Below, one piece after another: positions 52,759 to 55,700 of a stretch of 64,000 bases of DNA. The DNA comes from Candidatus Eiseniibacteriota bacterium (GTDB taxonomy: Bacteria; Eisenbacteria; RBG-16-71-46): assembly GCA_031370785.1 (NCBI GenBank), contig JANMQY010000063.1, positions 1 to 64,000 on the forward strand. Reading direction: 5' to 3'. Numbering within the stretch: the first letter of the stretch is position 1; every line of letters starts with the position of its first letter. Made by a program: the position numbers.

Positions 52759-55700
52759 GGTGATGATCGCGATGGCACTGGCGTGCAAGCCCGCGATCCT
52801 GATCGCGGACGAGCCCACCACCGCGCTCGACGTCACCATCCAGGCACAGATCCTCGAGCTGCTGAAGGAGCTGCAGCGCGACTTCGGCATGGCGGTGATC
52901 CTGATCACGCATGATCTGGGAGTGGTCGCCGAGACCGCGGATCGGGTCGCGGTCATGTACGCCGGTCAGCTGGTCGAATCGTGCGACGTGCGCGCCGCCT
53001 TCGCGCGCACGCGGCATCCCTACACTGCTGGGCTTCTGGCGTCGCTGCCGCGGCTCGGCGAGAAACACGACACGCTGCGCGTGATCCCCGGAACCGTTCC
53101 CGATCCTTCGAATTTCCCGGCGGGCTGCCGGTTCCATCCGCGCTGTCCGGTGGTGGAGGAGCGCTGCACCCGGCTCGAGCCCGCGCTCGAGACTCCCGAG
53201 CCCGATCATCTGTCGCGCTGCTGGCGGACGCATGAGATCGCCGCCGGCACGCTCGACCCCACGCCAGCCGTCGAGGCGCCGCGTGGGTGATGTCCTGCTC
53301 GAGGTCCGCGATCTGAAGAAGCACTTCCCGATCCGGCGCGGACTGTTCGGGCGCACGGCGGGGCAGGTGAAGGCGGTCGACGGCGTTTCGTTCTCGGTCG
53401 GCGCCGGGGAGGTGCTGGGGCTGGTGGGCGAGAGCGGCTGCGGCAAGACCACCACTGGACGCTGCATCCTGCGCCTGATCGAGCCGACTTCCGGCAGCGT
53501 GAGGTTCGAAGGCCGCGAGGTGACGACGCTTCCCGCGCGCGAGCTGCGCGCGCTGCGGCGCGAAATGCAGATCGTGTTCCAGGATCCCTACTCGAGCCTG
53601 AACCCGCGTCTCACCGTGGGTAGCATGCTGACCGAGGCGCTCACCATCCACCGCCTCGCCCGTGGCGCCGCGGCGCGCGCGCGCGTCGCGGAACTGCTCA
53701 CACTGGTCGGGCTTTCGCCGGACCACGCGCGACGCTATCCGCACGAATTCTCGGGCGGTCAACGCCAGCGCATCGGCGTGGCTCGCGCGCTGGCGGTGCG
53801 GCCCAGGCTGATCGTGGCCGACGAGCCGGTCTCCGCGCTCGACGTCTCGATCCAGGCGCAGATCATCAACTTGCTGCGCGATCTCCAGAAGCGCCTCGGG
53901 CTGACCTATCTTTTCGTCGCCCACGATCTCTCGGTGGTCGAGCACATCAGCGACCGGGTTGCGGTCATGTACCTGGGCCGGATCGTCGAGCTGGCCGGGA
54001 GCGCCGAGCTCTACCGCCAGCCTCTGCATCCCTACACCCAGTCGCTGCTGTCGGCGATTCCCCAGCCCAATCCGGAGCGCCGCCGCCGCCGCATGGTGCT
54101 CAAGGGCGACGTGCCGAGCCCGGCGCATCCGCCTCTGGGGTGCCACTTTCACCCGCGTTGCTTCATGGCTCAGCCGAAGTGCGCGGTCGACGAGCCGCTG
54201 CTGCGCGAAGTGCGCCCGGGCCACTGGGCGGCGTGCCATTTCGCCGAGCAGCTCATGAGTCCAGCCCAGGTCCCCGCGGGCGATCGATAGTTCTTCGGGC
54301 TCCACGCCTGTCGAACCCAGACTCATTGGGGCGGATTGCCCCAGACGCCCCATCCCACGGGGCCAATCCCCCCGTCAGGCGCCCTCGCGACCCTCCACGT
54401 GGGCAAAAAACCGCCACCGTGGCGCAACGGCCACGCCACTCAATCCTGCCTTCGGCAATCACTTCCGCTGCCCACCTCACCCGCCGGGTCAGGCAGGTGC
54501 CGGGTGGCACCCAGCTTGCGGAAGGGTAGAGGTGTCGTCGCGGCTCGGCGCCCTGGAGAGGGGCCCGTGTCGCGGCCCAAGCCTCGAAAAAATCGAATGC
54601 GGTTCCCTGTGTGACGCGTGCTAGCCGGCTGCCGGGCTGATCCCCCTATCGCGAGCGAAGGAGTCTTGCGGCCAGGTTCACGGTCAAGGCGGGGAACCAT
54701 CTTCGGGCCCCGAGCCTGCGGCTCCCTGCATCCACGCACGACATTGCCGCCGCGATCGGGGCCCATGAATCTTCAGGGCGCACATCCCTCGCGCCGCGCG
54801 ACGATCTGCTCGCGAGCACAGCGCCAGATCTCTTCGTCGCGTTCGCCCGGTCCGCTGTTGAGCACCACGCCTACCATCGCGCGTGCCCTCGCGACCTCCA
54901 TGCCCAATGCCGAGCGCTGGTGCGTTGACCCACATCGGCATCCCTGCTAGCGTGCCCCTCTCGATGCACGGCAAGTGACGTGCTCGCAAGCACCTTGAGG
55001 AGGACGCATCACACCGGTGACGCGTGAGGCGTTGGGGATGGTCGAGACCCGCGGGTGGGTCGCCGCAGTCGAGGCGGCGGACGCGATGTGCAAGACCGCG
55101 AGGGTCCACCTGACGCGCTACGAAGTCACCCCGGGCGCCCTGGTCACGATTCTGGTGCGCGGCTCGCTGGGCGACGTCGAGGCGGCGGTCGAGGCAGGGG
55201 CCCGCGCGGCGGCACGCGTGGGAGAAATGGTCGTCCGCCATGTCATTCCGTCACCCGATCCACAGCTGGAAGAACCCATCACGGGCCTGGGCCGATGACG
55301 AGCCCGGCTCGCATTCAACTTTCGACGTGAGGAGCACATCCCATGAATGAAGAAGCTCTGGGCCTGATCGAGACGCGCGGGTTCGTGGCCATGGTCGAAG
55401 CCTCCGACGCCATGGTCAAGGCCGCTCGCGTCACGCTGGTACATTACGAGAAGATCGGCGCCGGCTACGTCACCACCGTTGTGCGCGGCGACGTCGCTGC
55501 GGTGCGTGCCGCGACCGAGGCCGGTGCGGCTGCGGCCGCCAAGGTCGGTGAGGTGGTCTCGGTGCACGTAATTCCGCGCCCGCACGCGATGCTCGAGGAG
55601 GCGCTTCCCATCCGCCGTCTCGAGCCCGCGTCCAAGAAGTAACATCGCGTGATCCTGGCGCAGGTGGTCGGCACAGTCGTCTCCACGCGCAAGGACAAGG

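Follow-up and report, generated by a model that had tools for sequence, protein, structure and literature searches.

A conserved small RNA gene of Eisenbacteria with a predicted sigma-54 promoter and a likeness to the lower stem of 6S RNA

Few RNAs regulate RNA polymerase directly. The 6S RNA, which serves growth-phase control, is among them. To our knowledge, all 6S relatives described so far keep the full rod with its central bubble. Promoters of the sigma-54 type must be switched on by an activated enhancer-binding protein. Some bacteria that lack Hfq and ProQ have small RNAs (sRNAs) that use C-rich loops, and RsaE/RoxS of Firmicutes are C-rich-loop sRNAs with several C-runs. Excerpts of published accounts state that a truncated 6S-1 RNA reduced to the bubble and two short arms remains functional (PMC8876501) and that Ms1 of actinobacteria binds the polymerase core (PMC9130861).

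Here we describe a small non-coding RNA gene that is conserved in Eisenbacteria, a phylum without cultured members, and whose core lies at 54601-54698 on the plus strand of the window, that is, the whole analysed stretch of 64,000 nt (Candidatus Eiseniibacteriota bacterium, assembly GCA_031370785.1, contig JANMQY010000063.1, positions 1-64,000 of the forward strand). The genome examined (3.44 Mb, 100% complete) belongs to family f1. The core RNA is a 98-nt imperfect hairpin (hairpin 1), recognized by its fold, its covariation and matches to R1, a covariance model of the hairpin RNA. The genome-wide survey's note had given the gap between the opp and BMC genes as 747 nt; this length holds with a BMC-H start at ATG 55038 and becomes 726 nt if the start is GTG 55017.

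The plus strand of 54598-54770 had a folding energy of -87 kcal/mol against a shuffle mean of -74.3 (sd 4.25; z = -2.99), and none of 200 shuffles folded as well; for the minus strand, z was -0.84, and 31 of 200 shuffles were equally good. Invariant U-G and G-U pairs within the hairpin fix the strand as plus. Compensatory changes were seen in 13 of the 46 pairs of the f1 family alignment and in 13 of the 26 pairs of a MAFFT alignment of 44 sequences across families, so the covariation claimed earlier was borne out. In the 44-sequence alignment, 93.9% of cells were paired as compared with 32-46% when partners were slid, and the covariation score was 0.321 versus 0.152 +- 0.009, a value reached in 0 of 500 shuffles. 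Fold, covariation and conservation thus agree on a conserved, structured, plus-strand non-coding RNA gene without an Rfam counterpart, as the survey had proposed.

A nearly invariant motif, CUGAUCCCCC (54637-54646, plus strand), was found in the alignments where helix 4 meets the apical loop. The survey had let the apical loop begin with this motif; its near-invariance held, but its CU pairs within helix 4, and the loop proper begins at GAUCCCC. The mean predicted unpaired probability of GAUCCCC was 0.63 compared with 0.34 for the whole RNA (44 sequences). Sequence was nearly invariant in the basal stem as well as at the start of the loop, which fits protein recognition better than a pairing seed alone.

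R1 matched 102 of 151 sampled Eisenbacteria genomes. Run on the 102 genomes of the order, it matched 88 (f1, 77/88; f2, 8/10; f3, 2/3). BLASTN located the RNA in 77 of the 88 other f1 genomes, and in 43 of the 44 that were at least 90% complete. One match was present in 83 of the 88 R1-positive genomes of the order and two in the other five; the wide conservation and usual single copy reported previously were therefore upheld. The second, diverged copy of the source genome was also confirmed at C124:60226-60334 on the minus strand (81% identity), with an altered loop, CUGAUACACC, and a degenerate promoter. Of four genomes of families without an R1 match that were inspected upstream of RNase R and HU, three (G124, G102, G139) showed neither the RNA nor a sigma-54 site, and G112 had one sigma-54 site with a single mismatch before BMC-H and no hairpin. 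A pattern scan of all species returned 92 stretches, 80 of which were listed. Among those 80, 51 were titled Eisenbacteria or Eiseniibacteriota, and the remaining 29 comprised 23 R1-positive stretches and 6 that are chance pattern matches, because R1 does not match them. Five R1-positive loci were titled as other phyla and may be mislabelled bins.

A predicted -24/-12 promoter of the sigma-54 type, TGGCACCCAGCTTGC, lies upstream of the hairpin at 54505-54519 on the plus strand. It is the sole perfect match to TGGCAC-N5-TTGC in the window (0.07 expected) and one of 7 in the genome. Such a site with at most one mismatch was present on the sense strand upstream of the hairpin in 59 of 89 loci, compared with 0/89 downstream, 0/89 on the antisense strand and 2/2802 control windows. 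With at most two mismatches, it was present in 45 of 47 loci compared with 74 of 2802 control windows. The locus thus shows what marks sigma-54-dependent sRNA genes, namely a conserved promoter with GG at -24 and GC at -12, at a fixed distance upstream. The distance to the hairpin was 51-115 nt in f1, 33-38 nt in f9, f11 and six of seven f7 loci (63 nt in the seventh), and 15 nt in f3, where the hairpin must accordingly be nearly the whole RNA. In the source genome, a predicted 5' leader of variable sequence spans 54531-54600 (plus strand), if the transcript starts about 12 nt past the -12 GC. Conservation across loci shows this to be an RNA gene behind a predicted sigma-54 promoter. The source genome encodes rpoN and 16 strong sigma-54 activator genes; rpoN was present in 146 of 151 genomes, including families that lack the RNA, and did not track the RNA.

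Farther upstream are two palindromes, GGGGCGGATTGCCCC (54328-54342) and GGGGCCAATCCCCCC (54359-54373), as candidate enhancer (UAS) sites 1 and 2 to which a sigma-54 activator may bind. In 34 of 44 loci, palindromes of the form GGGG..CCCC stood 100-260 nt before the sigma-54 site, as compared with 12 of 898 control windows; at least two of them were present in 9 of 44 loci and in none of the 898 windows. They occurred irrespective of whether the upstream gene was opp, iPGM, a Rce1-like gene or a Big_1 gene. They look like enhancer sites of a sigma-54 activator, as judged from sequence, but they may alternatively serve the upstream gene as terminator stems. Among 106 sigma-54-like sites in the genome, only that at 54505-54519 had such palindromes within 300 nt upstream, and no further promoter with the same palindromes was found in the source genome; the activator may thus be dedicated to the RNA. 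We counted 102 sigma-54 activator genes in five genomes, and in two complete genomes the nearest ones were more than 50 kb from the RNA.

We compared the hairpin with R2, a model built from 6S RNAs of the Eisenbacteria phylum. In 20 of 30 loci, R2 gave a match (E<=0.016) that coincided exactly with the hairpin. Some 50 nt aligned on the 5' side and some 40 nt on the 3' side; these stretches take in the two arms of the lower stem as well as the stem-loop junction. The RNA therefore has the 6S closing stem formed from its 5' and 3' ends. Relatives scored 36-39 bits (f9), 35.9 bits (f11) and 31 bits (f2); the source-genome copy was matched at 54601-54699 in the same register with 15.6 bits. When R2 was run on five whole genomes, the hairpin was the best match after the true 6S in G147, G109 and G119 (E 1.4e-5 to 4.5e-5) and did not appear at E<=1 in G131 (f7) and G101 (f3). 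The likeness was weak in f1, where R2 with filters on matched 1 of 8 loci, and separate profiles of the 6S arms did not place the RNA (54601-54698) within their top 12 matches in the source genome. R1 in turn did not match the true 6S (8 bits). Further short hairpins with a likeness to 6S were also noticed. The motif CUGAUCCCCC aligns with the invariant UUGAGCCAAC of 6S, which starts the 5' strand of the central bubble. The two-stranded bubble with its 3'-strand hairpin is absent, there being a counterpart only for the start of the 5' strand, and so is the terminal (upstream) stem-loop, which was missing from both the R2 alignments and the consensus fold: 15-16 nt stand in for 98 of the 184 R2 positions, which make up the terminal stem and the 3' bubble strand. 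The model search shows a likeness of the predicted fold to 6S in the lower stem and the stem-loop junction, and the hairpin probably descends from 6S.

The hairpin is not a canonical 6S RNA. The true 6S gene lies elsewhere, at C125:22547-22740, and scored 75.5 bits; the gathering score of RF00013, 46.4 bits, was not reached by the hairpin. None of 23 canonical 6S loci had a sigma-54 site nearby. Rfam gave no match at E<=10 covering the element (searched at 54000-55300 and 54590-54712), the 6S model included. SRP RNA (RF00169) was likewise rejected, since its true gene is at C124:56537-56636 and its model was silent on the hairpin.

The gene could also be read as a cis-acting leader or attenuator, with the sigma-54 transcript running on into the BMC, sppA or HU operon and the hairpins controlling read-through. 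Hairpin 1 is followed by hairpin 2 (54705-54764, plus strand; GGGCCCCG...CGGGGCCC), which is supported by its fold and conserved within f1; together with the tail AUGAAUCUUCAG (54705-54776) it is the presumed terminator in f1. The survey had described a GC-rich terminator hairpin and a U-run. Hairpin 2 agrees with this; the U-run is weak in the source genome (AUGAAUCUUC), a point in favor of read-through, and a terminator scan of the plus strand found no terminator. Relatives terminate in AUGAUUUU. Against read-through, a run of U directly follows hairpin 1 in f9, f11, f3 and f5, where hairpin 2 is missing, and in f9, f11 and f3 it consists of U7-8 immediately 3' of the hairpin. The flanking genes named earlier were found again, oppF upstream in 26 and BMC-H downstream in 24 of 28 f1-family loci, and so was the usual position upstream of the HU gene; that link, kept in f1, f2, f3, f7, f11 and f16, favors a leader. 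The genes 3' of the RNA nevertheless vary between families and differ in f9, f17 and f5, and the second copy and tandem copies stand in other contexts. Moreover, the BMC genes have a predicted promoter of their own, of the sigma-70 type with an extended -10 (TTGACC-N17-TAGCGT; 54925-54953, plus strand), which marks the boundary of the unit. It was present in 24 of 29 family loci compared with 0 of 131 control windows, and the five loci without it also lacked BMC-H close downstream. A riboswitch or BMC 5' leader would have the same gene always downstream with no promoter in between, and the locus departs from this on both counts. A small share of the window was represented in two metatranscriptome runs, each of which gave a single contig (2156 and 5373 nt; about 90% alike). 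Both contigs match 54358-54769 and 54908-55000, but the 138 letters that separate these stretches in the window are replaced by 183 unlike ones. The contigs bridge the entire gap between the opp and BMC genes. They cover the RNA and also the promoter and BMC-H, as a leader would require, but the intervening stretch is unlike the window and a DNA origin is possible. The contigs show no RNA ends. Taken together, we give the leader or attenuator very little probability.

A trans-acting sRNA is a more serious alternative, though still rather unlikely: the GAUCCCC(C) loop would pair, without Hfq, with G-rich sites (GGGGAUC) at or near the ribosome-binding sites of mRNAs, and the 6S-like stem would be only a scaffold and terminator. 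The loop motif, nearly invariant and predicted to be unpaired, speaks for this, as do the absence of detectable Hfq and ProQ genes from the genome and the position of the RNA beside two kinds of peptide transporter (opp in f1, f2, f3 and f16; OPT in two of three f9 loci). The SD masking in trans proposed by the survey was not supported, because CCCCC against GGAGG has a C-A mismatch and no conserved target was found. At 1242 crude gene starts, the ribosome sites included GGGGG (19) and GGGGA (33) versus GGAGG (114), so G-run sites are a minority. Loop-complementary words were not enriched at ORF starts (GGGGATCA, 0.21 versus 0.21-0.27 for control words). The sole perfect 11-nt match at a ribosome site, AGGGGGAUCAGCGAUG, belongs to a conserved small protein of 89 aa (C135:5099-5368), presumably DUF2277, and was kept in 0 of 26 orthologs. 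Duplex energies of the loop with 13 neighboring gene starts were unremarkable; the best were HU (quantile 0.032, with a doubtful start codon) and oppA (0.063, outside the ribosome site). The target search is weak, because the gene calls are crude. Base pairing would also leave the sequence invariance of the basal stem unexplained, and in view of the likeness to 6S, a 6S-like or protein-directed role is at least as likely. The RNA might instead serve some protein other than RNA polymerase as a decoy or scaffold, with the 6S likeness arising by convergence or from a shared processing or stabilizing factor. Stem and loop are conserved in sequence beyond what pairing demands, and the weak likeness to 6S in f1 would be accommodated. 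Yet no partner can be named: CsrA is encoded, but the GGA in the loop is not conserved across families, which makes a CsrA sponge unlikely, and no Ro/TROVE protein was found. A Y RNA was rejected, as this 100%-complete genome has no TROVE domain and Rfam gave no match. Because the 6S match spans both arms in register and was the runner-up in three of five whole-genome searches, we regard a decoy or scaffold of this kind as quite improbable.

We consider it reasonably likely that the small RNA gene forms a transcription unit of its own, has a sigma-54 promoter and encodes a cut-down relative of 6S. Under this preferred reading, an activated enhancer-binding protein, probably bound to the GGGG-(A/T-rich)-CCCC palindromes 100-260 nt upstream, would switch on the RNA gene from the sigma-54 promoter. 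The core of the predicted transcript would be the 98-nt imperfect hairpin, ending in a U-run in some families and in a second hairpin in f1. This hairpin would keep the closing stem of 6S and the junction into the 5' strand of the central bubble; with the 3' bubble strand and the terminal stem lost, the bubble strand that remains would form a closed loop, about 25 nt long and beginning with GAUCCCC. In the likeliest mechanism, which we offer tentatively, the RNA would dock on RNA polymerase or another partner shared with 6S. The contact would be made by the conserved lower duplex and the exposed loop, and the sigma-54 signal might thereby alter how transcription is shared out. Judging by the truncated 6S-1 RNA (PMC8876501), it is the bubble that matters most to 6S, and most of it is missing here, so binding to RNA polymerase is far from assured. 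It seems unlikely that the RNA is a 6S derivative which engages the polymerase in a new way, for instance by binding the core or the sigma-54 holoenzyme through a mimic of the downstream duplex and a closed template loop. If it did, one enhancer-binding protein could trigger a global shift in transcription, and the RNA would be a signal-induced counterpart of 6S instead of a growth-phase one.

The RNA would be a natural half-size relative of 6S, reduced to the closing stem and the beginning of the template strand, and it would stand behind a sigma-54 promoter instead of under growth-phase control. Should it bind polymerase, one would learn what portion of 6S is enough for a second binding mode, and a specific signal would be tied to a global response in transcription. 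Even without polymerase binding, a widespread, predicted sigma-54-dependent RNA regulator is added to a phylum known only from metagenomes, and the module of promoter and candidate enhancers is a concrete handle for finding the activator.

As judged from excerpts of the cited papers, the RNA resembles the sigma-54-dependent sRNAs Qrr (PMC10162802), GlmY/GlmZ (PMC7073468, PMC4152352) and NcS25 (PMC10117139) in having a predicted -24/-12 promoter and a presumed terminator of its own; the palindromes would be the counterparts of their upstream activator sites. It differs from them in sequence and structure (no Rfam match), in that no Hfq gene was found here and in that the activator gene is not adjacent. 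Like RsaE/RoxS, it exposes a C-run in a hairpin loop and occurs in an organism that apparently lacks Hfq, but it has a single C-run, another type of promoter, no homology to them and no target found. Like 6S-2 of B. subtilis (PMC3923129) and Ms1 (PMC9130861), which the excerpted accounts present as additional 6S-related RNAs that stand beside or in place of canonical 6S and have a diverged partner or role, it would be an extra 6S-related RNA. Compared by description, both of those are full-length rods with a central bubble, unlike the hairpin RNA, and the excerpts report no sigma-54 dependence for either. With 6S RNA itself (SsrS; RF00013), the hairpin RNA shares the sequence and pairing of the closing stem, the short helix and junction that open the 5' strand of the bubble, the rod-like shape and its presence in the same genomes; it differs in being about half the size and in having a predicted sigma-54 promoter, which canonical 6S lacks.

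Downstream of the final opp ATPase gene (53232-54290), the stretch up to the start of the first BMC-H gene (at 55017 or 55038) matched no protein family when both strands were searched. Its plus strand carries two hairpins, hairpin 1 at 54601-54698 and hairpin 2 at 54705-54764. The plus strand of 54598-54770 folds with an energy of -87 kcal/mol (z = -2.99), equalled by none of 200 shuffles, and the fold of the minus strand is unremarkable (z = -0.84). When 44 sequences from several families were aligned with MAFFT, blind to structure, the consensus fold had 26 pairs, with compensatory changes in 13. 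In this alignment, 93.9% of the pairing cells could pair versus 32-46% with partners slid by 1-3 columns, and the covariation score was 0.321 versus 0.152 ± 0.009 in shuffles, with 0/500 reaching 0.321. Because U-G and G-U pairs are invariant, the strand is plus. Rfam 15 had no match to the element at E ≤ 10. The genome-wide survey's note had claimed a conserved plus-strand structured RNA, and the fold, strand and covariation tests bear this out: the RNA is real, conserved and outside Rfam. It is neither the genome's 6S RNA, which lies at C125:22547-22740, nor the SRP RNA, which lies at C124:56537-56636. After hairpin 2 and before the U-run, the motif CAUGA (54765-54769) is kept in most family members.

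BLASTN against the rest of the family recovered the element in 77/88 genomes, and in 43/44 of those of high quality. Our own covariance model built from hairpin 1 (R1) matched 88/102 genomes of the order (once in 83, twice in 5) and 102/151 sampled genomes of the phylum. By family, labelled f1 (that of the window) to f17, the positive genomes in the phylum sample were 55/59 in f1, 30/32 in f7, 4/5 in f9, 5/6 in f2, 2/3 in f3, 1/1 in f11 and f17, 1/2 in f5 and f16, 1/10 in f10, 0/7 in f4, 0/5 in f8, 0/12 in f13 and 0/2 in f12; these counts include one f2 genome flagged unpublished (G098), on which no result depends. Pattern scanning across all GTDB species found 92 stretches. Among the 80 listed, 51 were titled Candidatus Eisenbacteria or Eiseniibacteriota, and R1 matched 23 of the other 29; the remaining 6 had no R1 match and were rejected as chance pattern hits.

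The survey's note was right about the RNA gene itself, on the plus strand, and overlooked a conserved sigma-54 promoter upstream of the hairpin, TGGCAC-N5-TTGC, revealed by an alignment of 31 loci. In the window it lies at 54505-54519 (+), the sole perfect match in 64 kb (0.07 expected) and one of 7 genome-wide. With at most one mismatch and GG/GC held fixed, 59 of the 89 different hairpin loci, which include the 6 chance pattern hits (0/6 with a site), had the site on the sense strand within 200 nt upstream, and none had it downstream or antisense (0/89 each). At up to two mismatches it was found in 45/47 loci. Control windows from the same loci had it in 2/2802 cases at one mismatch and 74/2802 at two. 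In the window's genome, rpoN is present once and strong activator genes number 16; about 2 kb separate its single csrA gene from a gene for a sigma-54 activator (C102:23033-23191 and 25213-25719). The distance from promoter to hairpin was 51-115 nt in f1, 33-38 nt in f9, f11 and six of seven f7 loci, with 63 nt at the other f7 locus, and 15 nt in f3, so that the hairpin would be nearly the whole f3 RNA. GGG(G)-(A/T-rich)-CCC(C) palindromes were present 100-260 nt upstream of the promoter in 34/44 loci versus 12/898 control windows, with at least two in 9/44 versus 0/898. They could be terminator stems of the upstream gene; they are present regardless of that gene's identity and, among 106 sigma-54-like sites in the window's genome, occur at the small-RNA site only. 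We read the palindromes as candidate enhancer sites for an activator that may be dedicated to this RNA. Between oppF and the promoter there is also a terminator-like hairpin with a T-run at 54412-54431 (-), with no minus-strand gene to its right that would use it. In f10, a family lacking the RNA, a sigma-54-like site with one mismatch (TGGCGC-N5-TTGC; G112:C35, locus 1513-1527) precedes BMC-H by about 190 nt, and the interval contains no homolog of the hairpin.

At the 3' side, a U-run directly follows the hairpin in f9, f11, f3 and f5, and one or more additional hairpins follow hairpin 1 in f1 and f7. Family loci had oppF upstream in 26/28 and BMC-H downstream in 24/28. A sigma-70-type promoter with extended -10, TTGACC-N17-TAGCGT at 54925-54953 (+), separates the RNA from the BMC operon and recurs in 24/29 family loci versus 0/131 control windows. 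Gene order elsewhere is iPGM, RNA, SppA, HU, RNase R in f7; oppDF, RNA, SppA, HU, RNase R in f16; RNA, HU, RNase R in f11; and Rce1-like gene, RNA, OPT transporter or DUF2284 in f9. The small RNA gene is probably an independent unit. In f7 and f16, SppA-HU is preceded by similar TTGAC/TTGAAT...TAGCGT boxes. The compact microcompartment locus at 55017-58512 (+) encodes two BMC-H proteins, an EutN-type protein, aldehyde dehydrogenase, a tandem-BMC protein and two further EutN-type proteins, with no additional signature enzyme in this run; it is followed by HU (58629 or 58683 to 58994), RNase R, a PilZ protein, aroA and cmk. For HU, the ATG at 58683, after AAGGAGG, is the more likely start.

Canonical 6S genes were found in 53/61 sampled genomes, and the first and last words of the genome's own 6S RNA are nearly identical to those of the hairpin. 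A covariance model from 18 aligned canonical 6S genes (R2), run on 30 small-RNA loci (134 kb), matched the exact hairpin in 20 at E ≤ 0.016: 4/4 loci in f9 (36-39 bits), 1/1 in f11 (35.9), 2/2 in f2 (31), 1/1 in f17 (30.9), 2/2 in f3 (25-27), 5/5 in f7 (19.5-26), 1/1 in f16 (17.8), 1/1 in f10 (24.7), 2/4 in an unassigned group (18.5-26.4), 1/8 in f1 (24.4) and 0/1 in f5. In whole-genome searches of five genomes, true 6S ranked first; the small RNA was second in three (G147, G109, G119; E 1.4e-5 to 4.5e-5) and absent at E ≤ 1 in G131 and G101. The window copy reached only 15.6 bits in an unchanged register, and separate 6S-arm profiles did not single it out in its genome; the link between the f1 RNA and 6S therefore rests on family homology via R1.

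Further copies and related RNAs were observed. The window's genome has a second, diverged copy at C124:60226-60334 (-), on the same contig as the SRP RNA gene and some 3.6 kb away from it. The loop of this copy has become CUGAUACACC, and its promoter is degenerate (GGGGCC-N5-TTGC). Two other genomes carry paired copies on one strand: G056:C82, 2581-2690 and 3107-3215, about 420 nt apart, and G024:C197, 4603-4713 and 4799-4907, about 85 nt apart. Locus L103 has a weak second R1 match (35.6 bits) spaced like these pairs, with a quite different loop without GAUCCCC. Another hairpin family of about 111-121 nt has the basal stem GUUCCCUGCC...GGGGAAC, as in the small RNA, and a sigma-70-type rather than sigma-54 promoter. 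Its members are L246 (G147:C1:1147898-1148008, -) and L088 (G159:C7:124303-124423, -), perhaps with one in the window's genome near C9:22950-23060 (-); L246 and L088 have the inner motif GCGGGCUAUC in common, and L246 additionally has UUGAGCC. Eisenbacteria may have several short 6S-derived RNAs. A second full-length 6S-like RNA (G101:C42:36048-36224, -; 57 bits with the Rfam model, 47 with R2) accompanies the canonical 6S of G101.

The apical loop begins GAUCCCC, with a predicted unpaired probability of 0.63 versus 0.34 over the whole RNA. The survey's proposal of a trans-acting RNA masking Shine-Dalgarno sites by base pairing found no support: sites complementary to the loop were not enriched at ORF starts, the best candidate target was not conserved, the starts of neighbouring genes paired unremarkably with the RNA, and ribosome sites with a G-run are rare. 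Since the gene calls were crude, these negatives are weak evidence. Base pairing with mRNAs would be a doubtful explanation, placed a close second. Searches of the window's genome found no gene for Hfq, ProQ or Ro; CsrA, which is present, is an unlikely partner, as its GGA motif is not kept in the loop. We tentatively rank first a 6S-like, polymerase-directed role, because sequence conservation extends to the stem and the start of the loop, each of which aligns with 6S. In the portions of the literature available, no report of this small RNA was found, and no sigma-54-driven 6S-like RNA was described among the matches listed.

The R2 alignment covers the full 6S model. The small RNA matches both sides of the 6S closing stem, and its CUGAUCCCCC aligns with the 6S invariant UUGAGCCAAC, which comprises the helix below the central bubble and the beginning of the 5' bubble strand. 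Only 15-16 nt stand for 98 interior positions, and, as a caution for the polymerase-directed role, the missing parts are reportedly those central to the 6S cycle (PMC8876501). Unlike the small RNA, canonical 6S loci had a sigma-54 site in 0/23 cases. The description that fits the small RNA best is that of a 6S relative of half size, probably under sigma-54 control.
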